Source: an uncultured virus (IMG/VR IMGVR_UViG_3300037467_000874) (Duplodnaviria > Heunggongvirae > Uroviricota > Caudoviricetes). From it: DNA of 55,156 bases. The position numbers and the translations under genes were made by a program. Of the stretch, positions 8,133-55,154 are shown piece after piece. Location: IMG/VR virus record IMGVR_UViG_3300037467_000874; one strand, written 5' to 3'. Each line of letters opens with the position of its first letter. The stretch's first letter is position 1. The notes beneath the pieces were generated by a model, which worked only from the letters and a program-made list of their open reading frames with translations, had not been told where the DNA came from and did no database searches.

Positions 8133-8143
8133 ATCTCATACAC

Positions 8144-9425: not shown

Positions 9426-9441
9426 GTTTATTCATCCTTTC

Positions 9442-11075: not shown

Positions 11076-11107
11076 AAATAAAAGAGACTAGCTTTTCAGC
11101 CAGTCTC
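11076..11107 (-). terminator. Intrinsic terminator
   Basis: Minus-strand stem-loop GAGACTGGCT-GAAA-AGCTAGTCTC followed by TTTTATTT. Confidence 0.6.
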
Positions 11108-11114
11108 GCCATAA

Positions 11115-12116: not shown

Positions 12117-12136
12117 CTGCTTTATCTCCCTTCTAA

Positions 12137-12460
12137 TTAATTGTGTTCTTCGTCTTCTGGATCGTACTCATCTTCATAATCCTCATCATAGTAACTATCT
12201 TCATCCTCGTAATAAGAAGAACTTTCTTCCTCTTCCCAAACATCATCACGATACTTAGCTACAAGATCATCAGAATAGACATGGAATGGAACTTGTGGTT
12301 CAACATACGCACCATATACTGGATTATATCTAAGATCATGCACTACATTATAAGCATGTTCAAGCAAATCTTCTGTTGTAGCAATCTCATTATTTTGAAC
12401 AAACTCTTCAAGTTCTGCAAGCTTACCAGCGATAAATTCTACTTTTTCTTCAAATTTCAT
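12137..12460 (-). CDS. Acidic hypothetical protein
   Basis: 107 aa with a very Asp/Glu/Tyr-rich C-terminus; RBS and promoter upstream. Confidence 0.7.
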   Translation of the reverse strand: MKFEEKVEFIAGKLAELEEFVQNNEIATTEDLLEHAYNVVHDLRYNPVYGAYVEPQVPFHVYSDDLVAKYRDDVWEEEESSSYYEDEDSYYDEDYEDEYDPEDEEHN

Positions 12461-12506
12461 GTTTTAACATCTCCCATATTTTTATTTTATCTTCCATCTG
12501 TAAAGA

Positions 12507-12535
12507 ATTATAGCACTAATTTACTAGATTGTCAA
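12507..12535 (-). promoter_or_regulatory. sigmaA-type promoter
   Basis: TTGACA-17 bp-TATAAT with extended -10 TG. Confidence 0.8.
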
Positions 12536-12544
12536 TCGGTTTTA

Positions 12545-12826
12545 TTATTCCCATCCATATTTGTTGGAAGCTATTTCCATAATCTCTTCAAGAGTTTCGG
12601 CAGAGATTGTTTCCCTGTAACTTCCGTAAACCATAATTTCACAATGGAACATAGAATCTTCATACCAAACTGATCCATAGAAATTCCATGCTGGATATCC
12701 AGCATAAGTTGACTCATTCGTTCGAAGAGTAAATTCAACATCTCTATTAACCTCATGGTCAAAGTTAGACATCACCATTTCGCTAAGTTCATCGCTATTC
12801 ATTTTGTCAAGTCTCTTATAGTTCAT
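12545..12826 (-). CDS. Hypothetical protein
   Basis: 93-aa ORF. Confidence 0.65.
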   Translation of the reverse strand: MNYKRLDKMNSDELSEMVMSNFDHEVNRDVEFTLRTNESTYAGYPAWNFYGSVWYEDSMFHCEIMVYGSYRETISAETLEEIMEIASNKYGWE

Positions 12827-12830
12827 TTGT

Positions 12831-13025
12831 TTATTCCGCCTTTTTAATGTTTTGGTTTACTTCGTTCACAAAATAATAAATCCACTTTCCACAATCTGTA
12901 TAGACAAATTTACCAATAGTATCAAACTTAATAGTTCCAGTTAGGCTAACAACATTTCTAGATTGATTGAATGGAGAATCGAGAAGAACAACTTTATCGT
13001 TAGTTTTAAGCATTGTTCTCACCAT
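12831..13025 (-). CDS. Hypothetical protein
   Basis: 64-aa ORF in the gene run. Confidence 0.5.
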   Translation of the reverse strand: MVRTMLKTNDKVVLLDSPFNQSRNVVSLTGTIKFDTIGKFVYTDCGKWIYYFVNEVNQNIKKAE

Positions 13026-13204
13026 TTTAGGCTAGTAAGATAAGCTAATGTAAAGTTATTAACGCCAGTAATCTTCTGTTCAGTCGTTGATTTATCATCA
13101 TCAATAATTGTCTTAAACATCTCAATCATAGCACGACGTTTATCTGCTTCTCCTTCATAAATCAAGAAGAAATCAAGATATGGTTGAAGTTCGCCCATTA
13201 CCAA
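13019..13204 (-). CDS. Hypothetical protein
   Basis: 61-aa ORF overlapping its neighbours. Confidence 0.5.
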   Translation of the reverse strand: MVMGELQPYLDFFLIYEGEADKRRAMIEMFKTIIDDDKSTTEQKITGVNNFTLAYLTSLKW

Positions 13205-13431
13205 ATCTCACTTTCATGTCTCTTTACTATAATCCATCCGCCTTCTTCAAAATATTTCTCAACTTCTTCACAAGCATATGCTGTAAAGCTAGGATAAGGC
13301 CTTGGATTAATTTTACTATTAAAGAATACAAGATAATCTCCACTTTCGGCTTTTACAGCATGATATACAATATCATCAGTAAACATAATGTCTTTAGATA
13401 GTTTAAACTCAATTACTTCAATTGTTTTCAT
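13198..13431 (-). CDS. Hypothetical protein
   Basis: 77-aa ORF with ATGA overlap to the upstream gene. Confidence 0.6.
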   Translation of the reverse strand: MKTIEVIEFKLSKDIMFTDDIVYHAVKAESGDYLVFFNSKINPRPYPSFTAYACEEVEKYFEEGGWIIVKRHESEIW

Positions 13432-13835
13432 TTTTGTTCTCTCCTTAAAAAGTTATCAAGTGCTTCTTTCCCACGCCAATTAAGCTCATCATATTTTACA
13501 AGAATATTCATTCCTATCAAGAAACTACAATCATCTCTCCAAGTAATTTCATCTAAACAAACAATATAAAATTCTCTGTCCTTTAATCTGGCTGTCACAG
13601 GCCAGTCAAGTCTCCATTTGACAATATAAATTTTACCTTCATGTAAAACACCTAGAGTTGTAGCGTAATTACAAACATTTCTACTAGGAAGACTTAATTT
13701 TATTTCAGATTCAGTTTCACGATCTAATCGTACAATTCTTTCATTAATTGGTGTTTCGCTTAATTCCAAATTTCTTTTAAGCCCAATTAACTCTAAAGTG
13801 TTAAGGATATTATTAAATACTTTGTTGTTGTCCAT
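13428..13835 (-). CDS. Hypothetical protein
   Basis: 135-aa ORF with RBS. Confidence 0.6.
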   Translation of the reverse strand: MDNNKVFNNILNTLELIGLKRNLELSETPINERIVRLDRETESEIKLSLPSRNVCNYATTLGVLHEGKIYIVKWRLDWPVTARLKDREFYIVCLDEITWRDDCSFLIGMNILVKYDELNWRGKEALDNFLRREQK

Positions 13836-13847
13836 TTCTTCATCTCC

Positions 13848-14465
13848 TTAATCAAGAAATTCTGAAATATCATTTACATCTTTCTGTTTCTTAAACTTGA
13901 CTTCACGTTGTTCAAATTCTACTGCATCATCATCTGTAAATTTAGCAGAAGCTTTTTCTTCTTCAATTTGTTTCTTCAGAATAGCACGTTCTTGTTTTTT
14001 CTTGACCAATGAGATTTTATCTACAACAATTGAAAGACAATACCTTAACTCTGCTACAGTTCCATCAAATTTCTTATTCTCTCGCCAGTATTTGATATTG
14101 TCTTTGCAGAAAACATAAGTGTCAGCAATTAACTTGTAAGAGAATCCTTCTTTACTTTTCTTAACTTTCTTGCCCATCTTGAAGTTGCCATTACGCAATC
14201 CTTGAAGATAACCGCTGAAGAATTGACTTGGAACTATATCTAGACCATGAATATCTTTTATAACCTCGTTTAAGTAGTCGCGTTCTTCGTTTTCTTTTTT
14301 AAGAAATTCTTTCTCTGCAAGAAACTGATTCCAGCATTCACCTTTATGATAATACTTGCGAACAACTGAACCACTATCATATTCAATTGTGTCACATTCC
14401 ATTTCTTTCTTGTCAGTGTCTTTGAGGTTACAAAAATTACACTTTACTATTGCCATTCCACTCAC
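13848..14465 (-). CDS. Hypothetical protein with N-terminal CxxC...HxxxC zinc site (replication-module associated)
   Basis: KCNFC...YYHKGEC; C-terminal DISEFLD; sits between the AAA/SSB genes and the helicase. Confidence 0.65.
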   Translation of the reverse strand: MSGMAIVKCNFCNLKDTDKKEMECDTIEYDSGSVVRKYYHKGECWNQFLAEKEFLKKENEERDYLNEVIKDIHGLDIVPSQFFSGYLQGLRNGNFKMGKKVKKSKEGFSYKLIADTYVFCKDNIKYWRENKKFDGTVAELRYCLSIVVDKISLVKKKQERAILKKQIEEEKASAKFTDDDAVEFEQREVKFKKQKDVNDISEFLD

Positions 14466-14865
14466 CCACTATATTAATTATCTGGATTGGTGAATCTTCC
14501 CCAAGACCTCTTTTAAGTTGTTTAATGTGAACGCGGGATGGTTTAATAACGCTCTTTACGAACTTGAAAGCCCTGTAGGGATCAACTGTTTCTCCACACG
14601 TATAACAATCAAACGAAATATAGCCTTTTTGCGGATAGGTATGAAATGATGCATGTGACTCTGACAAGAGAATTAATACAGTACATCCGTTTGGTTCAAA
14701 CTGTCTTGAAACTACATCCAAAACCGTTGCTCCTGCATCTTCAGCGGCACATATCAACAATCCTTCAAGATACTTTAAATTATTTGTTTTATCAAAGTCT
14801 ACTCCCCAAAAATCAACTGTAATATGATTTCCTACAGTGGAGTATTCAACTTCCCGTTCTTCCAT
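14437..14865 (-). CDS. speD: S-adenosylmethionine decarboxylase proenzyme
   Basis: GNHITVD, FEPNGCT, self-cleavage motif LSESHASFHTYP, DCYTCG. Confidence 0.95.
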   Translation of the reverse strand: MEEREVEYSTVGNHITVDFWGVDFDKTNNLKYLEGLLICAAEDAGATVLDVVSRQFEPNGCTVLILLSESHASFHTYPQKGYISFDCYTCGETVDPYRAFKFVKSVIKPSRVHIKQLKRGLGEDSPIQIINIVGEWNGNSKV

Positions 14866-29217: not shown

Positions 29218-30192
29218 TTATGTGCGGCATTCGTCACAATATTCATCTTCTTCATAAAGACTTTCTATTGTCTCAATGTTGCAATAGTCTTTAACGGAAT
29301 AAATATTTTTAATGTTAAATCTTTCGGCAAGTGGTCTAAACTTTTCATAATCAAACTTTCTATTATGAAACATCCCCTTTGCTCTGTGTAGTATTCCTGA
29401 ACGAAGAATATTTTTTCCTGTGAAGTATGGAATACCAAGTGTTTCACTGATAACTTTAAGTCTTCTGTATACAACTGAAGATTGAACAGCGCCACTGTAG
29501 TTATCAGTTTTGGTAACTGAGTTACGAAGTACATAATCATTTTCTACTAATGTTGTAAATTCTTTAATGTTTTCAGTGACTTCCATTTGACCATTTCTCT
29601 TTGTGTAAGTTTTTTCACTCAATGCTTCCTCGATCAATTTGATGGTTCTGTCAGAAACTTCAATGCTTCTTGCGAGCATTCCTTTTTCATTTCTTAAATG
29701 TAAGATGTTGTTTTTAAAGTCAACATCAAATTTGTTTAGATTTCTGATTTCACAAGAATCTTTACCCGCTACACCTTCGAAATATAGTCTGATAATTACT
29801 GCGTCTTGTGCATTCTCACAGAATCGCTCAATCTCTGTTATCTCTTTCTCAGTGAAGTATAACTTTACAGACTTGTCAACGAATTTGTCAAACCATTCTG
29901 AATCAACAAGCTTCAATGGATTCATGACAACCTTCTTGTATCCTGCATCAATGCACCAAGATATATAAGATGTTACAATCCTGCCATTTGATCTAGATAT
30001 GGCGCTTGTCAATGGTGCCAAATCTGAAAGAAAGTCCTCTATTTCACTCTTTGAGAATTCAGCTAAATCTTTGCCAAGAACTCTCTCTGTATCAGCACTT
30101 TTAATGAATATTCTCTTGTAGGTTGATTTAGAATCTTCATTTTCATACATATTTAAGAACAATTCTTTGATATCTGCATTGTAAAGCTCCAT
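29218..30192 (-). CDS. YopR/MrpR (SroF)-like phage repressor with tyrosine-recombinase fold
   Basis: Collinear with SPbeta YopR as I recall it: YNADIKE, KLYFT, IRLYFEGV, LVENDYV, ILRSG, YSVKDY. Lacks the catalytic Arg (GKDSCEI) and the HxxR motif. Confidence 0.8.
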   Translation of the reverse strand: MELYNADIKELFLNMYENEDSKSTYKRIFIKSADTERVLGKDLAEFSKSEIEDFLSDLAPLTSAISRSNGRIVTSYISWCIDAGYKKVVMNPLKLVDSEWFDKFVDKSVKLYFTEKEITEIERFCENAQDAVIIRLYFEGVAGKDSCEIRNLNKFDVDFKNNILHLRNEKGMLARSIEVSDRTIKLIEEALSEKTYTKRNGQMEVTENIKEFTTLVENDYVLRNSVTKTDNYSGAVQSSVVYRRLKVISETLGIPYFTGKNILRSGILHRAKGMFHNRKFDYEKFRPLAERFNIKNIYSVKDYCNIETIESLYEEDEYCDECRT

Positions 30193-39862: not shown

Positions 39863-40549
39863 TCACATTACGAATTCTTTCAGTGTGTCATGCGTTTCCT
39901 TAATTGAATACCCCTTACTTACATGATTTTGATAAAATTCCTTAACTTTCTTCTCATTAAGTTTATTGTCAAAACGTCTATCGGCAAAGAAGTCTTCAAA
40001 AGTTTTATAAGAGTATGTTTCACCATAGAAAGTTCCACCATTTTCCAAGAAATTGCCGACATCAACAATAACTGGAAGTCCGTTCTTGATCATTACATTG
40101 TCAGTCTTAGCGTCGAAAGGCAATAATCCTCTCTCAAATGCATATCTCAAACAATTCATATAGTGTTCTGCAAAACCCTTCTTCAAATCAAGGCTATGCA
40201 AAATTGGAGATTGATAATTATAAGTACTCAAATTTTTTGTCATCACTCGCTCGTAAATCATGAATTTTTTATGATGATAAGCATATAATTTAAGGAATGG
40301 AGAATCTTTTCCTTGAAGCTTTAACAAGTTAACAGCATCCCAATTAGATTCTTCATCTTCATTGAAACAACCTGCATAAATTTTAATTGCATAATTCCCA
40401 AGTGCATAAACAATTCCAAATGCGCCATATCCAAGTTTTTTAAGATTATTAATGCCATGTTCATCAATCATTTTTTCAATCTTTTGAACAAGCATCTTAC
40501 TAATGCCGCCGACAATAACAGTTTCATTTTTAATATGTTCCATTGTCAT
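39863..40549 (-). CDS. Ser/Thr protein kinase-like protein
   Basis: LGYGAFGIVY, YAIK, FDAKTDNVM, VIVDVG. Confidence 0.85.
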   Translation of the reverse strand: MTMEHIKNETVIVGGISKMLVQKIEKMIDEHGINNLKKLGYGAFGIVYALGNYAIKIYAGCFNEDEESNWDAVNLLKLQGKDSPFLKLYAYHHKKFMIYERVMTKNLSTYNYQSPILHSLDLKKGFAEHYMNCLRYAFERGLLPFDAKTDNVMIKNGLPVIVDVGNFLENGGTFYGETYSYKTFEDFFADRRFDNKLNEKKVKEFYQNHVSKGYSIKETHDTLKEFVM

Positions 40550-40567
40550 TATCTCCCTTATTGGTTA

Positions 40568-41203
40568 TTAGACTGCAAGTTCAAATTTACAATATTGCTC
40601 CATGAATTCCTTGCACCATCCAAGGCAATAACTCTTGCCGCCAATATTAAATGGAGGGAATTCACCTTTAAGGTAAAATGTTCCAGCATCAACAATAACA
40701 GGAAGGCCGCTTTCATTTATCATGATATTACTTTTCTTTAAATCAGTAAGCTCCACGCCTCTTTTGTCAGCATGCTCAAACGCTTTCTCTAGGTGATATT
40801 TAAAAGCTGGAGAAACTTGAAGTTTATTCTTTAACTTATCGTATTCTACACAATAATCATCTAAAGAGTATCCAATTATTCTTTCCATAATCATAAAATC
40901 TTTATCATGGGCATATACTGTAGGGAAGTACGGAGAACCATTAAGAGCTTCAAGCATTTTACCATCATTGCAATATTGTTCAGCACCAGAAAAATATTTG
41001 ACAGCATAACCTTCATATTCAAATACTTCTCCATTACACCCACCACCAATTTGCTTAGTGAAGTAGCTTGACAAAGGTTTATACATACTTGCTCTTTCAT
41101 AGTTGTCAATGTAACCTTCTCTGCCTTTTTCATATTCTTCGATTGCCTTAGCTACATAATCAACAATGGATTGATTGATAGTTTGGACAATTTTCAAGGT
41201 CAT
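40568..41203 (-). CDS. Ser/Thr protein kinase-like protein (paralog)
   Basis: IGGGCNGEVF, YAVK, IMERI, TDLKKSNIM, VIVDAG. Confidence 0.85.
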   Translation of the reverse strand: MTLKIVQTINQSIVDYVAKAIEEYEKGREGYIDNYERASMYKPLSSYFTKQIGGGCNGEVFEYEGYAVKYFSGAEQYCNDGKMLEALNGSPYFPTVYAHDKDFMIMERIIGYSLDDYCVEYDKLKNKLQVSPAFKYHLEKAFEHADKRGVELTDLKKSNIMINESGLPVIVDAGTFYLKGEFPPFNIGGKSYCLGWCKEFMEQYCKFELAV

Positions 41204-43722: not shown

Positions 43723-43784
43723 CTCCCTTAATTTTTTTGGTCACGCGACACAAAAGAGGCGCATAGTTAGCGCCTCTTCACTGT

Positions 43785-44027: not shown

Positions 44028-44128
44028 TGTTCATCACTCCACGTTGTTATTTGCGGTTATCCGCTACACTATTATTCTATTAATGAGAGAGTAGCTTTAT
44101 GCTACTCTCTCAAATTATTTTTACTGCC

Positions 44129-46453: not shown

Positions 46454-46483
46454 AGTATACACGTATCCCGTTGAATTATGCAA
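46454..46483 (-). promoter_or_regulatory. Probable sigmaA-type promoter of the helicase gene
   Basis: TTGCAT-18 bp-TATACT. Confidence 0.5.
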
Positions 46484-46533
46484 GTCCATCATCATTTATT
46501 TTTGTATTTGTGTATACCGCGACACTGCTCGCA

Positions 46534-46824
46534 TTATGCGAGCACGTGAATTGAATCAATGATTGGACTATCTTCATCGTTAAGATTGAATATTCCGTAA
46601 TAATCAATTTCTTCGCCCAACTCATGAATTCCCCATTCAATCAATTCCTTCGCCACACGTTCATTGCTCCAATGTTTAGGCGTCGAATATGATTCGCCTT
46701 CAAAGACTTTGTTGTCTTCCATTTTAACAACGAAGCGCCAATAAGTACGTGTAATATCTGAATCAACTTCAACTATTTGTCCTTTAGACATACCACATTC
46801 GAATACAATAATCATTTCAATCAT
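46534..46824 (-). CDS. Cassette gene, hypothetical
   Basis: Between cores 46525 and 46852; stop codon lies within the hairpin. Confidence 0.7.
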   Translation of the reverse strand: MIEMIIVFECGMSKGQIVEVDSDITRTYWRFVVKMEDNKVFEGESYSTPKHWSNERVAKELIEWGIHELGEEIDYYGIFNLNDEDSPIIDSIHVLA

Positions 46825-46881
46825 CCCCTAAAGTTTAATGGTACCGCAACACAAGCGGACAATTAATGTCCGCTGTTTAGG

Positions 46882-47319
46882 TTAAATCATTCTATTCAGT
46901 TTCATTGAAGCAAGCAAGCGTAATGCATTTTCAAACAATAATGTAAGTTGAACATCTGTTTGATTGTAGTCGAATGGAATCTTTTTGCCGTCATACGTCC
47001 CAGCATTATATCCAACACGTAAACTAACATCCTTTTCCCATGTCTTTCTATTGTAAGTATCAGAAATTGCAATTTTCCATCCATCACTACTCCATGAAGT
47101 AGGACGATCGGCAATGCGAATCAATGCACCATAACAGCGGTCATTATTATTAATTGCATCTTTTGTTTCCACAACTTTAAAGATTGATTTAAATTCTGTC
47201 ATGTGCTTGTAACAGATGGAAAGGAAAAGTTGTTCAACTTCTTCCTTTCTTACATGTGTAGCATTAACAGCGTTTTGTTTTTCTTCTGCACGTTTTACTA
47301 CATCTGCTAACAATTTCAT
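46882..47319 (-). CDS. Cassette gene, hypothetical (start moved to the second Met)
   Basis: The MDDK prefix in the ORF track derives from the repeat's RBS segment. Confidence 0.7.
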   Translation of the reverse strand: MKLLADVVKRAEEKQNAVNATHVRKEEVEQLFLSICYKHMTEFKSIFKVVETKDAINNNDRCYGALIRIADRPTSWSSDGWKIAISDTYNRKTWEKDVSLRVGYNAGTYDGKKIPFDYNQTDVQLTLLFENALRLLASMKLNRMI

Positions 47320-47348
47320 TTTATCATCCATCCTCTATTGTTTGATAA

Positions 47349-47364
47349 TGTTCCACGTGGAACA
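47349..47364. promoter_or_regulatory. parS: parS site inside repeat element
   Basis: TGTTCCACGTGGAACA. Confidence 0.85.
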
Positions 47365-47392
47365 ATGCGAAGTCCGCAACACAAAACCCGCT

Positions 47393-47692
47393 TTATTCGG
47401 CGGGTTTAGTAATGTTTTTAAAATATTCTTGGAATTCTTCTAATCTTCCAGCCTTTTGAATCTCACCAATTGTTAATGTTAAATCATCGAATGTAGCAGT
47501 TTTTACATATTCTAATCTGTCTGCAAGCATCTTTTCCTTTGACCCATTAGTCTTGTTCTTTGCAATTACACATTTTTCTCTAATATGATACTCCAGCATA
47601 TTTCTACCGAAATATTTTTTACAATGTGGACATTCTGCTTTTGTATAAGCCACTTTTCTTCTGCCCATTTTACAACACCTTCCATTCTCCAT
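47393..47692 (-). CDS. Cassette gene with zinc-finger-like motif
   Basis: CPHCKKYF...LEYHIREKC; stop in hairpin loop; likely start MGRRK. Confidence 0.7.
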   Translation of the reverse strand: MENGRCCKMGRRKVAYTKAECPHCKKYFGRNMLEYHIREKCVIAKNKTNGSKEKMLADRLEYVKTATFDDLTLTIGEIQKAGRLEEFQEYFKNITKPAE

Positions 47693-47951
47693 CTTTGTCC
47701 TTATACTTCATGTAAGTACATCCTGCATATCCTGCCGCCCAGTCAAGCGGCTGAAATGCTTTTGATTCGCCTGCATTAATCCAAGACGTTTCACCATCGT
47801 AATACAGATTGTCATCGTCATCATAAAGTTTGATTTTTGTTTTTTCTTCTTTAGGCAATTCATCCCATTTTTTTTGATCGAAGTTAGCAGATTGAATGTT
47901 AATCTTTTTCTTGTCTAGCCAATCATAAGTAATACGCCACATATTCATCAT
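47670..47951 (-). CDS. Cassette gene, hypothetical
   Basis: KLYDDDDNLYYDG...PLDWA..YAGC motif. Confidence 0.75.
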   Translation of the reverse strand: MMNMWRITYDWLDKKKINIQSANFDQKKWDELPKEEKTKIKLYDDDDNLYYDGETSWINAGESKAFQPLDWAAGYAGCTYMKYKDKDGEWKVL

Positions 47952-48001
47952 TCCTTTGTTTTATAATGGTAACGCGACACGCGCCAATTAAGGCGCTATG
48001 C

Positions 48002-48250
48002 TTACAAATTATCTTCATCCTCTTCAACACTGGAATGAATGTTTGATATTGCATTGTCCACGTCCTGCATTGCTTCGCGCAATGTCGTAAGTGCTTCATA
48101 TAAATTCTGTAAATCATTAGCGTAATAGTCCGCTTCTTTCGTTTTATCCAGTATATCGGAAATTTTGTTTTCCAGCGCTTCAACCTTGTCAATGTTTCTA
48201 ATAAACTTGTTTGCCTCTTCACCTAATGCTACAATTCTTTTCGCGTTCAT
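48002..48250 (-). CDS. Cassette gene, coiled-coil acidic protein
   Basis: Between cores 47980 and 48296. Confidence 0.7.
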   Translation of the reverse strand: MNAKRIVALGEEANKFIRNIDKVEALENKISDILDKTKEADYYANDLQNLYEALTTLREAMQDVDNAISNIHSSVEEDEDNL

Positions 48251-48312
48251 TTTATCATCCATCCTTCATTGTTATTTGTGGTATGTACCACGACACAAGC
48301 CGCATAAGCGGC

Positions 48313-48522
48313 TTAGTCAATTTGTCCTCTAACGTCGAATGCAATTTCATGCTGTTCTGATATAGCTACAACACGTGTAAATTCTACTGTTTCGCCTTCA
48401 ATAATTATACCAAAATTATACATGTTGCTTGCAATTTGTTGTGCATTCTCATAACCAGTATGGAAATGTTGGGCATGAATTACCCTATCATTTACAAAAC
48501 AAACGAAATACCAATTCTGCAT
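48313..48522 (-). CDS. Cassette gene, hypothetical (start MQNWY)
   Basis: Flanked by identical 27-bp direct repeats. Confidence 0.65.
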   Translation of the reverse strand: MQNWYFVCFVNDRVIHAQHFHTGYENAQQIASNMYNFGIIIEGETVEFTRVVAISEQHEIAFDVRGQID

Positions 48523-48577
48523 ATCAATCATTCCTTTTTCTGTTATTTGTGGTATGTACCACGACACTAGCGGCTGT

Positions 48578-48667
48578 TTATGCCGCTAATTTGTAGAATA
48601 ATAAGAATAATCCATTAATGAATGCTAGGACCAATAAGCTACGATTTAAACGATAGTTGTAATTCAT
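48578..48667 (-). CDS. 29-aa hydrophobic peptide
   Basis: MNYNYRLNRSLLVLAFINGLFLLFYKLAA; GGAGG RBS; ATGA overlap; stop in hairpin loop. Confidence 0.5.
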   Translation of the reverse strand: MNYNYRLNRSLLVLAFINGLFLLFYKLAA

Positions 48668-48807
48668 TTAACAGCCTCCATTAACTCTTTATTGCTGTTC
48701 TGTTTAGCACGGCACCATAAACATAATGTATTATTTGGTATGTTGCTTGTAATTCGTTCTTTGCATCCAACACAAGTATAAGTATGTTTTACTTTAATCT
48801 TTTTCAT
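48664..48807 (-). CDS. 47-aa zinc-ribbon-like cassette gene
   Basis: MKKIKVKHTYTCVGCKERITSNIPNNTLCLWCRAKQNSNKELMEAVK, after the element RBS. Confidence 0.6.
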   Translation of the reverse strand: MKKIKVKHTYTCVGCKERITSNIPNNTLCLWCRAKQNSNKELMEAVK

Positions 48808-48911
48808 CATCATCTATCCTTTACTGTTTAATGTACCGCGACACAAGCCGCATGTAAAACATGCGGCTGTTTGTGTTATTTCATATCTGTAATTTCGCCG
48901 CGACTAGAAAA

Positions 48912-49166
48912 CTAGTCGCCAATAAATGATAACTGTAATGCCACTGATTTAATAGCGGAAATAATTTCATTAATCATAGTGTCATTAACTTCTTCAACGT
49001 CATAGTATTCTAATTCGATTAACTCTTTTAAGCTTTCGTGTTCTAGTCCTCTTACTGGTATGTAGAAAGCTTTAGAATATTGTTTGTCAAATAGTACAAC
49101 ATCTGTATTGCCAGCCATTTCAACGTAAACGTTAATTATTGCTGTTTTAATGTTTTTCATTTTCAT
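48912..49166 (-). CDS. Cassette gene, hypothetical
   Basis: Between cores 48844 and 49198. Confidence 0.7.
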   Translation of the reverse strand: MKMKNIKTAIINVYVEMAGNTDVVLFDKQYSKAFYIPVRGLEHESLKELIELEYYDVEEVNDTMINEIISAIKSVALQLSFIGD

Positions 49167-49317
49167 CCATCCTCTATTTTATAATGGTCACGCAACACTG
49201 CCGCGACATGCGCGGCATACTGTTTTACTCGTTAATTGTTTAATTTGTTCAATTGTCATACTTGCCATATTCATCATTCCCTTACTGTTATTTGCGGTAT
49301 GTCCGCAACACTTGGAT

Positions 49318-49333
49318 TGTTTCACGTGAAACA
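49318..49333. promoter_or_regulatory. parS: parS site (perfect palindrome) forming the element hairpin
   Basis: TTGGAT-TGTTTCACGTGAAACA-ATCCAA. Confidence 0.9.
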
Positions 49334-49347
49334 ATCCAATAAAACAT

Positions 49348-49557
49348 TTAAAGCATTACAAATGTTTCGTTCTTGCCTTCTGTTACGAATAAACTTAAAC
49401 CGTCATAATGTACATAGAGTAAATCCATGCCGAATGCTTGACGTTTATGTAATACACGTTTAACTGTTTTCTTTGTTCTGTTAAAGAGTGAAACAGGAAC
49501 AATAATATCTACACTTTGACCAACTTTGTTTAATGCGTTATCTGTTACTTTAATCAT
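49348..49557 (-). CDS. Cassette gene, hypothetical
   Basis: Between cores 49311 and 49597. Confidence 0.65.
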   Translation of the reverse strand: MIKVTDNALNKVGQSVDIIVPVSLFNRTKKTVKRVLHKRQAFGMDLLYVHYDGLSLFVTEGKNETFVML

Positions 49558-49627
49558 TTTATCATCCATCCTTTGTTATTGTAGTTTGACGCAACACAAG
49601 CCGCATGTAAAACATGCGGCATTCTAT

Positions 49628-49879
49628 TTATATTTGATAAACTTTCTTTAATGCTTTCTTTGCTAATGTTTCAATATGACTATCGTTACAGTCATATTTT
49701 TTGTACCATTCACAAATAGTATTGCTTCCAACTACTGCATATAAGCAATCCCATGCAAGCCTTGTTTCAAAGTCCTTAAATTTTCCACTTTCTTTCAATG
49801 CTATCGCGTGTTTTCCAATCTTCTCTTTAATTTCTTCCATTTTATCAACTACATTTTGAAGCTCATTTTGCAATTTCAT
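49628..49879 (-). CDS. Cassette gene, hypothetical
   Basis: KDFETRLAWD...CNDSHIET; between cores 49597 and 49919. Confidence 0.75.
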   Translation of the reverse strand: MKLQNELQNVVDKMEEIKEKIGKHAIALKESGKFKDFETRLAWDCLYAVVGSNTICEWYKKYDCNDSHIETLAKKALKKVYQI

Positions 49880-49946
49880 TTTTCATCCATCCTTTAACTG
49901 TTTAGTGGTAACGCGACACGCCACGTTATATACGTGGCATTGTGTT

Positions 49947-50234
49947 TTATTCGACAATGTAGCAATATTCTACAATCCATCGCGTTCCTTCACTTGGAAG
50001 CAATCTCATGTACAAGTCAAGGCGAACGCCTAAATCTATACCGTCCAAGCAGTTGCCAATAAGAGACATGCCAATCATACTATCATCGAACCATTTTGCA
50101 TCGCTTGAAACTTTGTAAGAACGTTCTTCATGTGTGTAAGTATTCCCGTCAAAACTCTTTTGATCGAATACAATAACAGCCGTTTTCCATTTATCTTTAC
50201 GCTGTTTCAATTCTTCAAGCGTCAATTTAATCAT
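49947..50234 (-). CDS. Cassette gene, hypothetical
   Basis: SLIGNCLDGIDLGVRLD...WIVEYCY. Confidence 0.75.
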   Translation of the reverse strand: MIKLTLEELKQRKDKWKTAVIVFDQKSFDGNTYTHEERSYKVSSDAKWFDDSMIGMSLIGNCLDGIDLGVRLDLYMRLLPSEGTRWIVEYCYIVE

Positions 50235-50281
50235 TCATTCATCCATCCTTTTTGTTTTAGAGTGTAACGCGACACAAGCGG

Positions 50282-50413
50282 CTATTTAGCCGCTAAAAAT
50301 GAGATAGCATAAATGATAGCAATTAAAGCTAATGTAAATGGGATAGATATAATAGAAATAAAAATAATTAAATCCATTTTCTTATAGTTTTTCAATTCTT
50401 GCATAGTCATCAT
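50282..50413 (-). CDS. 43-aa single-TM cassette peptide
   Basis: MMTMQELKNYKKMDLIIFISIISIPFTLALIAIIYAISFLAAK; stop within the hairpin. Confidence 0.6.
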   Translation of the reverse strand: MMTMQELKNYKKMDLIIFISIISIPFTLALIAIIYAISFLAAK

Positions 50414-50473
50414 TCCTATTCTGTTTAGTTTGGTTTAACGCGACACGGCACACTGTTTAGTGTGCCTAGTGTT

Positions 50474-50902
50474 TTAAACATCGTCCCCACAAACTTTACA
50501 ACCAAAATCTCCACATTCACATTCTTCTTCTTCAATTTTAAACCATCCAATACAAGCTCCATCGCCTTCACTACTGCCGAAATAATAGCCGCTAGGCGCA
50601 ATGTTGTTGAAATAATTATAAACGTCTTCATTCCAAACATAAGAAGCTGATTCATATGCACTTTCTTGAATTGTAGCTTCTCCATGATATTGTGACATGA
50701 ACAAGCCATGACTTTCAACATATTCCATGTCCTCAATGTTGAAGCATGTAAGGATAGAGGCGCGTAATTCTTCGTTAGCTTCCATGCCTTCTAATAAATC
50801 ATACGCTTTAGGTAATATGTGCTGAAGATTGCATGTGCCATCGCTTAAAATAAATCCACCATAAGATTTAACAATAGATTGAAAGTGTTCTACTTTAGAC
50901 AT
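50474..50902 (-). CDS. Cassette gene, hypothetical
   Basis: APSGYYFGSSEGDGACIGWF motif. Confidence 0.75.
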   Translation of the reverse strand: MSKVEHFQSIVKSYGGFILSDGTCNLQHILPKAYDLLEGMEANEELRASILTCFNIEDMEYVESHGLFMSQYHGEATIQESAYESASYVWNEDVYNYFNNIAPSGYYFGSSEGDGACIGWFKIEEEECECGDFGCKVCGDDV

Positions 50903-50954
50903 TTGTCATCCATCCTTTGTTTTTGTTTTAGCGGTTTTACCGCGACACAAGCCG

Positions 50955-51143
50955 CTATATATTAGCGGCTGTTTCTTTAAATAGTTGTTTAAGGCATTCA
51001 TAACATAGTGGAATACGCTGTTTATTAACAACACTTTCAAATGTCACTTCATGTGTAGATATTGCATGATGGCAAGAAAAGCAAACTATTTTAACTTCTT
51101 TGCCTTCGTAAAAGCTAGTTTCAATTTCATTAACTTTAACCAT
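50955..51143 (-). CDS. Cassette gene with CxxC...CxxC
   Basis: CFSC...LCYECL; stop within the hairpin. Confidence 0.7.
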   Translation of the reverse strand: MVKVNEIETSFYEGKEVKIVCFSCHHAISTHEVTFESVVNKQRIPLCYECLKQLFKETAANI

Positions 51144-51208
51144 TTTTCATCACTCCATCTATTTTAGTTGTCACGCGACACGCCACGCTGTTTAGCGTGG
51201 CAAGATTA

Positions 51209-51562
51209 TTACATGAATACTTCAATTTCAAAGAATGATTTATCTTTATAAAGAACACGTAAAACTTTACTTATTCCATACGTTTTCAATTCGAATTTTT
51301 CGAAGTTGCCGTAAAAGTTTTCTGTACCGTCAAATAATCCGCTGTTACGTTTTCTTAATTGAATGCAAAAACCTTCGCGATTGCATGATGTCTGAATTTC
51401 AAACGAATGAACGAAGCCAGCAATAACAACAAAAGTTTCATCGCTGTTAGGCATGCATGTTTTCATATGCAACTTTAGCGGTTTCCCCACTGCTTGCACT
51501 AAAAACGCTTCTACATGTTCGAAGCCTTCAACGTCTGTAATAAGTTGTTTTTGTTCTTGCAT
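51209..51562 (-). CDS. Cassette gene, hypothetical
   Basis: Between cores 51181 and 51604. Confidence 0.7.
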   Translation of the reverse strand: MQEQKQLITDVEGFEHVEAFLVQAVGKPLKLHMKTCMPNSDETFVVIAGFVHSFEIQTSCNREGFCIQLRKRNSGLFDGTENFYGNFEKFELKTYGISKVLRVLYKDKSFFEIEVFM

Positions 51563-51616
51563 TTGTCATCCATCCTTTAAGTTTTGTCGGCAGTGCCGCA
51601 ACACGTTTCACGCGAT

Positions 51617-51632
51617 TGTTCCACGTGAAACA
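51617..51632. promoter_or_regulatory. parS: parS site inside repeat element
   Basis: TGTTCCACGTGAAACA. Confidence 0.85.
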
Positions 51633-51643
51633 TTTTGTTTTGT

Positions 51644-51877
51644 TTAAATTTTCTCAAATAAATAAGCTGGCTTAACTTCGTATTCAATATATCCATATAC
51701 CTGCATACTTGAAATGCCTTCCCGTGCTGGTACTTCACTTTCTTCTATTTCCCATTTTGTCAATGGAGGGAAATAATTTGTTTTAACTGCAACATCAAAT
51801 AATCCATCGCTACGATGGGCAATTGATACATGCACATATTTATTAATTTCCACTGTTTTCCTTTTGATAATTTCCAT
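51644..51877 (-). CDS. Cassette gene, hypothetical (start MEIIKR)
   Basis: Start adjusted to follow the element RBS. Confidence 0.65.
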   Translation of the reverse strand: MEIIKRKTVEINKYVHVSIAHRSDGLFDVAVKTNYFPPLTKWEIEESEVPAREGISSMQVYGYIEYEVKPAYLFEKI

Positions 51878-51948
51878 ATTCATCATTCCTATTCTGTTTA
51901 GAGTATGACGCAACACAAGCCGCATAAATACTATGCGGCTGTTTAGGT

Positions 51949-52236
51949 TCAATCTAATTGAACGATTGTAACATTTAATGATGAAAGATATTTTCCGTGA
52001 TTACCTCCACTTACATAGTCATCTAAAAAACCATCGTTTTCTATTTCTTTTCTTTCTTCTTCTGTTAAAAATAATCCATTCCAATTTTGAGATTCTGCAT
52101 AATCAATAGCAAAATCTAATGCATCTTGTTCATAGTCAGCATTAACAATAACGTAATTAAATTCAGATAACCAAACTTTGTATGAGTGCTTCCAAAACTT
52201 CGACGTTTCGTTAACATAGATAAATTCTGTTTTCAT
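51949..52236 (-). CDS. Cassette gene, hypothetical (start MKTEFI)
   Basis: EQDALDFAIDY...GGNHGKYL; start adjusted to follow the element RBS. Confidence 0.7.
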   Translation of the reverse strand: MKTEFIYVNETSKFWKHSYKVWLSEFNYVIVNADYEQDALDFAIDYAESQNWNGLFLTEEERKEIENDGFLDDYVSGGNHGKYLSSLNVTIVQLD

Positions 52237-52291
52237 TTTCATCCATCCTTTAAGTTTTAGTGGTAACGCGACACAATGGAACATTTGATAA

Positions 52292-52307
52292 TGTTCCACG
52301 TGAAACA
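52292..52307. promoter_or_regulatory. parS: parS site overlapping element hairpin
   Basis: TGTTCCACGTGAAACA. Confidence 0.85.
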
Positions 52308-52309
52308 TT

Positions 52310-52480
52310 TTAACTAATTGATTTATTCCATTTTTCAATAATGACAAGCTTTTTAACTTTTTCGTCAACTACGTAATATGAAATGTCTTTGACTGTAAAC
52401 CCGTTTTTCTCTTTTGTTTCAATAAAAGAATCTACCTCATTCGAATTTACAACATGTTGTTCTTCTACGTATAATCTCAC
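52310..52480 (-). CDS. 56-aa cassette gene (GTG start)
   Basis: MRLYVEEQHVVNSNEVDSFIETKEKNGFTVKDISYYVVDEKVKKLVIIEKWNKSIS; flanked by identical 39-bp direct repeats. Confidence 0.65.
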   Translation of the reverse strand: MRLYVEEQHVVNSNEVDSFIETKEKNGFTVKDISYYVVDEKVKKLVIIEKWNKSIS

Positions 52481-52546
52481 TTTTCATCCATCCTTTAAGT
52501 TTTAGTGGTAACGCGACACGGCCCGCTGTTTAGGCGGGCACGTCTT

Positions 52547-52759
52547 TTAATCCTCTTCCTCTTCTTCTGTTTCCTCTTCTGTTTCCTCTTCCTCTTCAAA
52601 AGAGAAATCACATTCATAATGTGCGAATGCTTCCAGCGTTTCGCATGATGCGTCGCCGCTTAAATAATGATATAGAATGTATTCTAATATTTCTGTATCA
52701 GAAATACCACGTTCCCGCAATGCTTCCAGTCTTCTCACGGCTTCATTTCTCATGCTCAT
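52547..52759 (-). CDS. Cassette gene with poly-acidic tail
   Basis: C-terminus EEEEETEEETEEEED. Confidence 0.7.
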   Translation of the reverse strand: MSMRNEAVRRLEALRERGISDTEILEYILYHYLSGDASCETLEAFAHYECDFSFEEEEETEEETEEEEED

Positions 52760-52809
52760 TGTTCATCCATCCATTCTATTTTTTAGTGGTAACGCGACAC
52801 TGCCCAAAT

Positions 52810-52825
52810 TGTTTCACGTGGAACA
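52810..52825. promoter_or_regulatory. parS: parS site forming the element hairpin
   Basis: GCCCAAAT-TGTTTCACGTGGAACA-ATTTGGGC. Confidence 0.9.
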
Positions 52826-52841
52826 ATTTGGGCCTAGTTGT

Positions 52842-53069
52842 TTAGCCTTTTGGGGAACATGTTTCAAGCCATACAGGATGGCCCCATGAATAACATTGCT
52901 TTTCTGTTATGTCGCCGTCTTCATATAATGCCTGCACAAAGTTATTCCATGCCATGCGACGTGCTGGTTTATCAATAATTCCATTAGATTCCAAACCGCG
53001 AATAAGCCCCGGCAGTATTTCCATTTTAAACATTGTTTCCGCTTCTACTTTAGTCATACTATTCATCAT
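52842..53069 (-). CDS. Cassette gene, hypothetical
   Basis: DKPARRMAWNNF...DGDITEKQ..W.HP motif. Confidence 0.75.
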   Translation of the reverse strand: MMNSMTKVEAETMFKMEILPGLIRGLESNGIIDKPARRMAWNNFVQALYEDGDITEKQCYSWGHPVWLETCSPKG

Positions 53070-53131
53070 TCCTTTTATGTTATTGCGGTATGTCCGCTAC
53101 ACTGCCCGCTGTTTAGGCGGGCCTTACAATT

Positions 53132-53521
53132 TTAATAAGCATTAATACCATATTTGCGGCACAATACAAGGAATTCACGAATAATCAAGGAATTATAAAA
53201 CGTTTGTTCTTCATTACCTTCGCGTTCCTTGTATTCTTCGCCGCAATTTTCAAACCATTGTTGCAAAAGTGCGCTAATTGCATAGTGACGATATTCAACG
53301 CTAATTTCAGAAGGCAAGCCCATGAACCAATCAGCCATAGCCGCCCATCTGTTAGGATTCTGTTTCTTTTCATATGCATCGTACCAGTTATTGAAACCGT
53401 CTACAACGTTTTGTAATTGTTCTTTAACGTCATTTGTTTCTTCATCTGACATAATGTATAAAATATGTTCTTGTACTTGTTCCTTGAATGCTTTACGTGT
53501 CGTTACTGCCATGTTCATCAT
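53132..53521 (-). CDS. Cassette gene, hypothetical
   Basis: DWFMGLPSEISVEY motif. Confidence 0.75.
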   Translation of the reverse strand: MMNMAVTTRKAFKEQVQEHILYIMSDEETNDVKEQLQNVVDGFNNWYDAYEKKQNPNRWAAMADWFMGLPSEISVEYRHYAISALLQQWFENCGEEYKEREGNEEQTFYNSLIIREFLVLCRKYGINAY

Positions 53522-53544
53522 TCCTGTTCTGTTTAGGCTAGAAA

Positions 53545-53560
53545 TGTTTCACGTGAAACA
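53545..53560. promoter_or_regulatory. parS: parS site (perfect palindrome) inside repeat element
   Basis: TGTTTCACGTGAAACA. Confidence 0.9.
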
Positions 53561-53603
53561 TTTTCCGCAACACTGCCCACTATATCAATAGTGGGCAACC
53601 TGT

Positions 53604-53804
53604 TTAAGAAAAACGGCTTATATTAACAACATAACCAGCCTCACAAAGTAAATCTATTACTTTTGATACCTCTTGCATCGAACTAACGACATGACTACCA
53701 TTAACAGCAACGAAATATAAAATATCATAAATGCGTCCTCCATTTGACATTTCGTATGCCTCTTGTTCACGATTTATAAAAGCTTCGCATTCTACTACAT
53801 ACAT
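53604..53804 (-). CDS. Cassette gene, hypothetical
   Basis: Between cores 53573 and 53843. Confidence 0.65.
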   Translation of the reverse strand: MYVVECEAFINREQEAYEMSNGGRIYDILYFVAVNGSHVVSSMQEVSKVIDLLCEAGYVVNISRFS

Positions 53805-53851
53805 TGTTCATCCATCCTCTATTGTTTAGTGGTACCGCAACACAAGCCGCA

Positions 53852-54082
53852 TTAAAATGCGGCATAGTCATTATCGAAGTCTTTAGCAATCAATAGTTCA
53901 GCGCTATACAATCCGCTGTTCATGCTATCCAGTAAATCGCCGCATGACATTTCATAACCAAATTTGCTATGCTTCCATGTTCCTGCTTGCGTTCGTGTAA
54001 AGTAGACAGGAAAACCAATACCCGTATCCATTTTTACATACGCGTTTTTCTGTTTAAGCTGTTCCATTGTAAATTGTGTCAT
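53852..54082 (-). CDS. Cassette gene, hypothetical (start MTQFT)
   Basis: Flanked by identical 36-bp direct repeats; stop within the hairpin. Confidence 0.7.
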   Translation of the reverse strand: MTQFTMEQLKQKNAYVKMDTGIGFPVYFTRTQAGTWKHSKFGYEMSCGDLLDSMNSGLYSAELLIAKDFDNDYAAF

Positions 54083-54152
54083 TTTATCATCCATCCTCTA
54101 TTGTTTAGTGGTACCGCAACACGCTACGCTGTTTAGGCGTAGCTTATTAAGG

Positions 54153-54419
54153 TTATTCAATAGCGGCAAGCCATGGCGAACCATATTTAACGCATTCATC
54201 CAAATATACGCGCCTGCCTTGAATCGTGAAATATTGACGTTCTTCTTTGTCCTCTTGAATTTTAAATTTGCGAATATCTCCGCTGTCAATAGATGCAGTG
54301 ATGATATCAAAGTCTAAATGGTTAATAGTCCAAACTTCGATTTTAGCATGATACGAAGTTGCGCAAAGTGCATAAGGCTTGCTAGGTTGTTCTTTCATTT
54401 CCTCTTTTGTAAGTCTCAT
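54153..54419 (-). CDS. Cassette gene, hypothetical
   Basis: RQYFTIQGRRVYLDEC motif. Confidence 0.7.
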   Translation of the reverse strand: MRLTKEEMKEQPSKPYALCATSYHAKIEVWTINHLDFDIITASIDSGDIRKFKIQEDKEERQYFTIQGRRVYLDECVKYGSPWLAAIE

Positions 54420-54473
54420 TGTTCATCCATCCTTTAAGTTTTGTCGGCAGTGCCGCAACACGTTTCACGCGAT

Positions 54474-54489
54474 TGTTCCACGTGAAACA
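54474..54489. promoter_or_regulatory. parS: parS site inside repeat element
   Basis: TGTTCCACGTGAAACA. Confidence 0.85.
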
Positions 54490-54496
54490 TTTTTAT

Positions 54497-54658
54497 TTAA
54501 CTGTTTACTTGTTTTACTTTGCCTTGTTTGTATTTGTCCGGCGGATATGAAAGACGAACAGTAGAACGAGCACTTTTTTCGCTTTTCACATTATGTACAG
54601 TTATCCATTGTCCACTATATTTATTGCCGATTTCCCATACTGCTACTTGATACGTCAT
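54497..54658 (-). CDS. 53-aa cassette gene
   Basis: MTYQVAVWEIGNKYSGQWITVHNVKSEKSARSTVRLSYPPDKYKQGKVKQVNS, after the element RBS. Confidence 0.65.
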   Translation of the reverse strand: MTYQVAVWEIGNKYSGQWITVHNVKSEKSARSTVRLSYPPDKYKQGKVKQVNS

Positions 54659-54704
54659 TTGTCATCCATCCTTTAGCTGTTTAGTGGTCACGCAACACAA
54701 GCCG

Positions 54705-54917
54705 CTAAAAATCAGCGGCCATTTCTTCCAATCCTTTAACTACACTTTCGACTGTTAAGCAAGTGTAACCATTTTCGAATTCATAGCGCTCTTTGCCTGT
54801 AAAAGAATCAGACATGTCGTAAACAATTCCGAATGGCGTATGAACGGCGTTCCAATCGACATTATATTCAATAGCCGCATTATCTAACGCTTTAAGCAGT
54901 TTATTATTGATTATCAT
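54705..54917 (-). CDS. Cassette gene, hypothetical
   Basis: Stop within the hairpin; between cores 54698 and 54975. Confidence 0.7.
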   Translation of the reverse strand: MIINNKLLKALDNAAIEYNVDWNAVHTPFGIVYDMSDSFTGKERYEFENGYTCLTVESVVKGLEEMAADF

Positions 54918-54948
54918 TTTTCATCCATCCTCTATTTTTAGGCTAGAA

Positions 54949-54964
54949 TGTTCCACGTGAAACA
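54949..54964. promoter_or_regulatory. parS: parS site inside repeat element
   Basis: TGTTCCACGTGAAACA. Confidence 0.85.
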
Positions 54965-54986
54965 TTCCGCAACACAAAAGCCGCTG

Positions 54987-55154
54987 TTATTCAGCGGCTG
55001 TTTCTTCGTTTCTATCATTGAAATATTTCGTATACTTTTGCAATTCGTATTCCGTTAATTCATCATATGTAGTACGTTTCATGAATTCCAGAACAGCCAT
55101 ATTGTCAATGACTACCAAACGAAATAATGGGCTATCATCCATGCGCGTTCCTTG
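54987..55154 (-). CDS. Partial cassette gene (5' end probably outside the window)
   Basis: Open frame ...QGTRMDDSPLFRLVVIDNMAVLEFMKRTTYDELTEYELQKYTKYFNDRNEETAAE*, with stop in the hairpin loop. Confidence 0.6.
   Translation of the reverse strand, partial: QGTRMDDSPLFRLVVIDNMAVLEFMKRTTYDELTEYELQKYTKYFNDRNEETAAE

Follow-up and report, generated by a model that had tools for sequence, protein, structure and literature searches.

A repeated hairpin-and-core element between the small early genes of a Tsamsa/SPbeta-like phage: a candidate mRNA-maturation signal

The small early genes of the uncultured virus IMGVR_UViG_3300037467_000874 (called G000) (about 27 in a row) are separated in almost every gap by a copy of one intergenic element, in which a conserved 8-nt core, GTGTYGCG, stands at the foot of a hairpin of variable sequence (hairpin 1). 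The DNA analysed here (the window, 55,156 nt) covers the first 55 kb of the 169,219-nt virus record, read on the opposite strand, and its final 184 nt are the record's other end, which overlaps the record start. As judged from sequence, G000 is a 169-kb Tsamsa/SPbeta-like phage and the window is its early arm. The repeat is a real, uncatalogued regulatory element and a probable variant of the intercistronic mRNA-processing signals of phage early operons. By analogy with related phages, its copies probably act as maturation signals on one long early mRNA.

The element pattern was the regular expression GTGT[CTA]G[CT]G, with 32 matches on the minus strand and two on the plus strand of the window. 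Three matches lying within genes (34464, 29774 and 23793) were excluded, and the set of 30 copies comprises 27 in an array at 46.5-55.0 kb, those at 44069 and 43751, and copy C1:168768 just outside the window. On the coding (minus) strand, the end of the upstream gene is followed by hairpin 1, 0-3 nt, GTGTYGCG, a looser KWAC, an A/C-rich spacer, a purine-rich Shine-Dalgarno sequence (SD) and the start codon. The A-rich spacer begins 6-11 nt past the core in most copies, and the SD lies 24-48 nt from the core. An SD-led open reading frame (ORF) of 42-145 aa is contained in 25 of the 27 array units; Pfam assigned no family to the 25 array ORFs scanned, except for one weak match below cut-off. 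Each gene gap holds one element. The first element stands after the leader and the last precedes the promoter of the helicase gene, so that every array gene has an element on both sides and n+1 elements accompany n genes. In the 113-nt unit between elements 49311 and 49198 (window 49200-49280, minus strand), an SD and a start codon open a frame that runs through the next element. Upstream, the array continues beyond the window with element C1:168768, a leader of ~760 nt and a predicted promoter near C1:167,970-168,000.

Hairpin 1 is conserved as a structure and the core as a sequence, since the hairpin arms vary while still pairing and most core positions are fixed. A preliminary description of this DNA had proposed that hairpin 1 differs between most copies and always pairs. 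All of its examples are present (AGCGGACA/TGTCCGCT at 46854-46874, GCCACGT/ACGTGGC at 49920-49938, GGCACACT/AGTGTGCC at 50447-50466, GCTACGC/GCGTAGC at 54123-54143 and TGCCCACTA/TAGTGGGCA at 53574-53597), and 28 of the 30 copies pair better than dinucleotide shuffles (p<=0.05), the failures being 47980 and 44069; the 30 copies have 28 distinct 5' arms. The stems are nearly perfect and 5-12 bp long (44069 excepted), with loops of 3-10 nt; the 3' arm ends 0-3 nt ahead of GTGT. When the register is set by the motif alone, the hexamer at -7..-2 is complemented by the copy's own upstream DNA in 21 of 27 copies versus 42 of 702 cross-copy pairs. A mutual-information test on 20 distinct stems was positive but circular, because the stems had been picked for pairing. 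The element copies are paralogues, and the hairpin-1 pairing statistics ignore this shared ancestry.

The same description held that structure rather than sequence is conserved. This is true of hairpin 1 and does not extend to the core, which has six of its eight positions fixed, partly owing to the search pattern, although the same repeat emerged from an unbiased search; position 11 is A in 25 of the 30 copies. Nor does it extend to the second stem after the core, for which compensatory variants had been listed. This stem folds at -2 kcal/mol or better in 12 of the 30 copies, beats shuffles in 7 of the 30 and is not a general feature. In a fixed register covering 22 of the 30 copies, 41% of the cells pair with no two-sided change (the gapless register misses long-loop copies), and two near-identical copies supply the sole compensatory change, GCG/CGC to GTG/CAC. 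Two of the second stems had been drawn with impossible loops (2 nt and 1 nt); the actual folds are 5 bp with a 4-nt loop and 4 bp with a 3-nt loop. Another small hairpin is a possibility: GUGU and an AC-rich stretch can form four pairs around a YGCG loop of 5-8 nt in 26 of the 30 copies versus a shuffle mean of 12.8 (0/2000), or in 20 of 24 distinct copies versus 10.1 in shuffles, this being a post hoc design near 0 kcal/mol with several registers equally possible. It has no two-sided change because its 5' side is fixed. An H-type pseudoknot linking both stems was rejected by inspection, the linker being 0-1 nt.

The processing of RNA, one of the roles that the preliminary description had considered together with RNA stabilisation, fits the context best, with no promoters in the gaps and RNase III-like hairpins in the same slots of three relatives. 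These relatives (G001, G002 and G003) were found with a helicase profile; their records are complete and carry a small-gene array immediately upstream of that helicase, and they alone among 160 screened loci have at least 13 hairpin-bearing gaps. Their terminases are 73-74% (G001, G002) and 45% (G003) identical to that of G000. They share the order of a sigmaA-like promoter, a GC-richer leader of 700-1000 nt, the small-gene array and the helicase; 4 of the 25 array proteins of G000 have homologues in these regions. The gap hairpins of the relatives are long and imperfect, begin at the upstream stop codon, have a median of 21-25 pairs and lack a U-tract. Folding favours the mRNA strand in 16 of 17 gaps of G001, 9 of 10 of G002 and 34 of 36 of G003. 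Two-sided changes occur in 13 of 20 pairs of the G003 hairpins (19 copies, pattern-selected). A covariance model was built from six early hairpins of phage SPO1, which we take to be its mapped RNase III sites; it weakly matches three places in G003 (E 0.012-0.55). The G003 model matches elements of G001 and G002 (E 4e-4 to 0.13) and has no match in SPO1. The core of G000 occupies the place of the 3' strand of the outer helix in the relatives.

In the more distant phages Tsamsa and vB_BcoS-136, most genes are preceded by a promoter. In a Perkons gap, a pistol ribozyme scores 63.1 bits against a cut-off of 34.5. The slot would thus make per-gene RNA ends, because relatives fill it with RNase III-like hairpins, promoters or ribozymes, and this is the main ground for preferring maturation as the explanation. 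In Psychrobacillus phage Perkons, the pistol and one or two hammerhead-like RNAs lie between early genes (L019:3064-3136, 5064-5125 and ~9350-9430) and are unannotated in the record.

The closest relatives of G000 by terminase (82%; L195/L196/L201) and by helicase (75%; P0005) are known as fragments. Pattern searches of viral contigs for arrays with the G000 core returned 0, 4 and at least 113 stretches, with no array and no second phage carrying the core among the matches listed. The core 8-mer matches twice in G001 and once in G002, never within their arrays. The elements of G003 lack the 8-mer as well; three reversed copies stand in the first ~35 nt of its leader (G003 C1:84,206-84,238), just past the early promoter, and make up three of its seven genome-wide matches.

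SigmaA promoters were found in none of 26 array gaps, versus 14 of 16 in vB_BcoS-136 and 6 of 12 in Tsamsa, and promoter-like sequences in the gaps show no excess over shuffles. Such promoters are frequent elsewhere in the genome, and the late genes have host-type ones. Outside the window, the first element is preceded by the non-coding, GC-rich leader of ~760 nt (C1:~168,005-168,767 = L001:~13,005-13,770). Its start is a prediction, because the early promoter (extended -10) was read by eye and its 19-nt spacer is over-long. The leader folds better than shuffles (z -4.3), and so do those of G003 (-3.6) and G001 (-8.5). The leaders of the relatives (L187:~11,340-12,120; L188:~14,090-14,830; L189:~7,230-8,250, minus strand) share with it A/C-rich repeats at the head and an internal motif (G000: C1:168,212) that resembles what we take to be the rRNA boxA consensus. 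The leaders matched no Rfam family, and blastn of array and leader against GenBank phages gave no match or short parS-type or chance matches. From these comparisons, the leader of 700-1000 nt is an uncatalogued structured RNA in four related phages. In the literature searched, which left most subscription journals out of scope, no description of the element or the leader was found.

Two further features of the leader were considered and discarded. Its first 60 nt pair with the core better than 193 of 200 shuffles do; this is unspecific, because the heads of G003 and G001 score equally; an arginine-rich 73-aa ORF over the leader start has no SD and no Pfam match. The non-coding stretch before the early promoter (L001:~11,100-12,960; G000 C1:~166,100-167,960) contains many repeats of a AAGCGCTT-centred palindrome, presumably like CcpA cre sites, and a TGTCGAA 0A box, and similar stretches were seen by eye in G001-G003. 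On this sequence basis, the early promoter may sense carbon status and sporulation.

In the proposed maturation, the leader and the whole array would be co-transcribed from the single early promoter, and the transcript would be cleaved at the base of hairpin 1, within or next to the GUGU of the core. Hairpin 1 would stay on the upstream piece and shield its 3' end from exonucleases. The other piece would start with the core, followed by a weak 5' hairpin giving 5' protection and by a strong ribosome-binding site. The cutter would recognise the core sequence plus the adjacent stem, irrespective of stem sequence, and parS palindromes could therefore serve as stems. RNase III acting on the local fold is a less likely cutter than a phage protein or a single-strand endonuclease of the host, and a helix completed by the leader, or self-cleavage, would be minority versions. 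Among these versions, a host or phage nuclease reading core plus stem is a tentative choice; RNase III on an imperfect local fold is unlikely, with a leader-completed site ranking after it, and self-cleavage is very improbable.

Several results weigh against this reading. The 5' flank does not extend hairpin 1 (-3.9 versus -4.1 kcal/mol in shuffles, 37 of 60 shuffles being as good), a comparison that rules out a long local RNase III hairpin, and some hairpin 1 stems have only 5-6 bp. The SPO1 and G003 models gave no matches in the window at E<=1, the SPO1 model being narrow (six sequences). The second stem is absent in 18 of the 30 copies, and no nuclease candidate was identified. The coding strand folds better in 14 of 27 elements, which is no strand preference; because both strands fold equally well, the elements themselves do not show whether RNA or DNA is the acting form. 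The argument is one of positional analogy with relatives whose own elements are only predicted sites.

That one leader RNA guides processing at ~30 sites through a complement of the core is likewise an unlikely proposal. It was raised because there is one leader complement and because, in rRNA operons, the boxA complex is reported to keep the 5' RNA beside the polymerase exit channel (PMC8632103). Across the whole contig, the transcribed strand has a single strict core complement (CGCG[AG]CAC), at C1:168,241 in the leader, ~30 nt after the boxA-like motif. In it, a G faces each of the two variable pyrimidines of the core (U/C at position 5, C/U at position 7). Pairing would form a helix of 8 bp that stacks on hairpin 1 and stands in for the local outer strand of the relatives. 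The result would be a split processing site that can be reused, completed by the leader either in trans or while tethered to the polymerase, or else a docking helix for a catalytic leader. In the best window of the leader, pairing is stronger than in 38 of 40 and 12 of 12 shuffles, which none of the other seven motif-leader pairings achieves. Against such guiding, the complement is a post hoc find with a chance of 0.05-0.08 in shuffled leaders, six of its eight bases lie in a local stem, the relatives keep the leader without needing a complement, and the composite helix would have only 13-20 bp.

Besides maturation, the elements may be explained as weak factor-dependent terminators or pause sites that a leader-modified polymerase reads through (processive antitermination), so that toxic early genes are insulated from stray transcription. 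This explanation is the best placed of the rivals, although still rather unlikely. The GC-rich hairpins run directly into a U/G-rich stretch, and three elements pass a terminator scan on the coding strand; the stable folding of the leader and the motif common to four leaders also agree with it, and RNA antiterminators of 260-600 nt are reported from Gram-positive elements (PMC8191782). The preliminary description was nevertheless correct that hairpin 1 lacks a proper U-tract on the coding strand: at least five U follow within 9 nt in 3 of the 30 copies (antisense strand, 14 of 30), the other 27 fall below this number, and 13 copies pass from the stem straight into G. The element is not an ordinary intrinsic terminator on this strand, for which a GC-rich hairpin is present in 28 of the 30 copies and the U-tract is mostly lacking. 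Moreover, a terminator does not need the fixed YGCG, and the relatives keep the leader though their hairpins lack a U-tract.

The core may also be a double-stranded DNA site for a phage regulator, an MrpR homologue or another protein, that silences the array in the manner of an operator or "stoperator", with hairpin 1 separately ending antisense transcripts or guarding 3' ends. This is more doubtful than read-through of terminators. The genome encodes an MrpR homologue, and in SPbeta MrpR is reported to bind a 15-bp repeated intergenic element (PMC10516654). The 12-nt core is weakly dyad-symmetric, 13 array element hairpins pass a terminator scan on the antisense strand, and the reversed 8-mers of G003 lie just past its early promoter. 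However, no core copy lies near the listed strong promoters of G000, the gaps contain no promoter, G001 and G002 encode MrpR while their arrays lack the 8-mer, and the antisense U-tracts come partly from strand composition. The fixed adjacency of core and hairpin is left unexplained, because a protein bound at the hairpin foot would presumably stall the polymerase before the hairpin forms.

The single-stranded DNA recombination sites proposed earlier, of the attC type, would serve the gain, loss or shuffling of gene cassettes and are improbable here. One gene per unit and a gene content that differs between relatives (4 of 25 proteins shared) would suit them, as would contig joints at element 48296 in two of four DNA runs (sides of 43-44 nt), a weak hint of a strain with another cassette. 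At window 48296-48299, contigs from two studies join the element to sequence like that of the 49877/52236 element. The sites called attC have invariant GTT/AAC ends and extrahelical bases. In G000, GTT occupies core positions 3-5 in only 13 of the 30 copies, and the near-perfect hairpins have no conserved extrahelical bases. No integron integrase scored above cut-off: the best score (TIGR02249, 27.4 bits against 265) came from the MrpR-like protein, and the second recombinase had no match. Shuffling is explained without a recombinase by homologous recombination between the repeated stretches of core plus SD.

Least probable of all is that the elements are promoters, perhaps hairpin-dependent, read by a phage polymerase or with an alternative sigma factor. 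The slot is that of the per-gene promoters of Tsamsa and vB_BcoS-136, and the A-rich spacer lies a short way past the core. Against this, no sigma region 2 or 4 was found in the genome (controls worked), two Pfam scans (120 and 98 ORFs, many without any family) found no polymerase family, the late genes use host-type promoters, the core-to-SD distance, stems and loops vary over the ranges given above, and the last element has no gene start after it. Searches with the RdRP and T7-type polymerase families PF05183 and PF00940 gave no match, and their positive controls were likewise silent.

The contig contains 12 parS-type palindromes, one duplicated through the end overlap; they were called with what we take to be the parS consensus. 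Ten lie in the window, all in the early arm (36804, 39840, 47349, 49318, 51617, 52292, 52810, 53545, 54474 and 54949). Eight of the 27 array elements contain one, within hairpin 1 (five), as the second stem (two) or right after the second stem (one), a feature that the preliminary description does not mention. The early-arm palindromes suggest, by analogy with phi29, that the host partition system is used for spore entrapment. The features of the window are collected in Table 1.

Table 1. Positions of the array, its elements and neighbouring features in the window
Feature	Position	Strand	Remarks
Array of 27 elements (hairpin 1, 0-3 nt, GTGTYGCGKWAC-type core, A/C-rich spacer, SD)	46514..54999	-	spacing 113-598 nt
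Element 54975	54964..54999	-	8-bp hairpin 1; parS-type palindrome 54949-54964 forms second stem
Element 54698	54687..54720	-	
Element 54461	54450..54488	-	parS-type palindrome 54474-54489 in hairpin 1; 4-bp second stem
Element 54122	54111..54143	-	
Element 53843	53832..53863	-	
Element 53573	53562..53597	-	parS-type palindrome 53545-53560 in second stem
Element 53102	53091..53122	-	core variant, A at position 5; 4-bp second stem
Element 52800	52789..52833	-	parS-type palindrome 52810-52825 in hairpin 1
Element 52519	52508..52539	-	
Element 52274	52263..52299	-	parS-type palindrome 52292-52307 overlapping hairpin 1
Element 51916	51905..51940	-	
Element 51604	51593..51631	-	parS-type palindrome 51617-51632; 95% identity to 54461 across 82 nt
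Element 51181	51170..51201	-	
Element 50948	50937..50970	-	5-bp second stem
Element 50446	50435..50466	-	
Element 50275	50264..50294	-	
Element 49919	49908..49938	-	
Element 49597	49586..49620	-	
Element 49311	49300..49339	-	parS-type palindrome 49318-49333 = hairpin 1; 5-bp second stem
Element 49198	49187..49217	-	
Element 48844	48833..48868	-	
Element 48567	48556..48588	-	core variant, T at position 7; 5-bp second stem
Element 48296	48285..48314	-	core variant, T at position 7; 5-bp second stem
Element 47980	47969..47996	-	shortest hairpin 1, 5 bp
Element 47382	47371..47407	-	parS-type palindrome 47349-47364 after second stem
Element 46852	46841..46874	-	
Element 46525, last of the array	46514..46544	-	helicase promoter next, not ribosome-binding site
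Degenerate element 44069	44058..44112	-	12-bp hairpin 44084-44112, 14 nt from core
Element 43751	43740..43779	-	
UvrD/PcrA-type helicase, 684 aa	44363..46417	-	syntenic anchor for finding related arrays
SigmaA-like helicase promoter (TTGCAT, 18 nt, TATACT)	46454..46483	-	predicted by eye
MrpR-like repressor gene	29218..30192	-	candidate binder if the core is a DNA site

The terminase and an integrase-fold protein of G000 are 38-52% identical to those of large Bacillus siphoviruses (Tsamsa/PBC2/SPbeta circle), and near-identical DNA is present in 11 soil and rhizosphere sequencing runs, six of which may be sources of the record; going by these matches, G000 is an uncultured soil phage of Bacillus-type bacteria. 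A terminase search across GTDB genomes gave no match. This integrase-fold protein, the product of the MrpR-like gene (29218-30192), is annotated as an integrase in PHROGs and is actually a homologue of MrpR-type repressors, with homologues in G001-G003. Genes also noted are a SASP gene (L012:10949-11191, plus strand), a tubulin/FtsZ-like gene (L003:2883-4013, plus strand), an RNA-repair cluster at window 22-27 kb (kinase, nucleotidyltransferase and RNA ligase) and two neighbouring Ser/Thr kinase-like genes (window 39863-41203, minus strand). Tsamsa, PBC2 and vB_BcoS-136 have one kinase gene each within their early arrays.

Within one phage family, the problem of expressing dozens of small early genes independently appears to have several interchangeable solutions: a promoter per gene (Tsamsa, vB_BcoS-136), ribozymes (Perkons), or one promoter with a long leader and a per-gene processing signal (G000-G003). 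Loss of the outer helix, a fixed core, embedded parS-type sites and a conserved leader set the element apart from routine cases. In G000, the signal has lost the long duplex and kept the 8-nt word, which suggests a cutter or guide without a described precedent among Bacillus phages. Its thirty natural variants are a ready-made specificity set; if only ordinary host processing is found, the array would be a large example of a known phage device.

Comparable systems include the early-region RNase III sites of phage T7 and the stoperators of mycobacteriophage L5. SPBRE, the element bound by MrpR in SPbeta and compared by description only, is likewise a repeated, oriented intergenic motif of a phage that encodes MrpR, whereas the core of G000 is confined to one array, always at a hairpin foot and not at promoters. 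With RNA-based antitermination (rrn boxA, pLS20 conAn2, HK022 put, EAR), the array shares a long structured leader ahead of a long operon; it differs in having no Rfam match, no identified antiterminator protein and downstream hairpins that are mostly not terminators. Multiple parS-type palindromes in a phage genome recall phi29, which is reported to have five parS sites (PMC2731898) and in which host Spo0J mediates spore entrapment, but in G000 the palindromes of 8 of the 27 array elements serve as RNA stem or loop, a use also seen in some elements of G003.

Self-cleaving ribozymes occupy equivalent gaps in Perkons, the pistol (RF02679) above cut-off and hammerhead II (RF02276) below it, and the processing of polycistronic RNA has been suggested as a role of such ribozymes (PMC6765202). 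The Rfam consensus of the pistol ends in a hairpin and then GGUuGcg, resembling hairpin 1 plus core, whereas its P1, pseudoknot and catalytic strand have no counterpart in the element. The Rfam search recommended in the preliminary description gave nothing credible for the window, the array or the leaders, and no ribozyme match in the array up to E<=10, the Perkons pistol serving as positive control.

A further close likeness is to the sites of Bacillus subtilis RNase III in early mRNA of the Bacillus phages SP82 and SPO1, which are also hairpins between small early genes and lie a few nucleotides ahead of a strong ribosome-binding site. RNase III of B. subtilis is reported to cut SP82 RNAs that have internal loops at a single point, on the downstream side (PMC1935012). 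The elements of G001-G003 are laid out like the six SPO1 hairpins (an outer helix, a G-G mismatch, a small internal loop and an inner stem of ~10 bp), whereas G000, unlike its two closest complete relatives, keeps only the inner hairpin and the fixed 3' word, the outer 5' strand being missing locally; it has 30 copies instead of a handful and no match to either model. The G000 element has the intercistronic place in an early operon before a ribosome-binding site that marks this class, and its stems of 5-12 bp fall short of the local duplex of about two helical turns. By this comparison, the element of G000 stands outside the SP82/SPO1 site class, yet it probably works like it.

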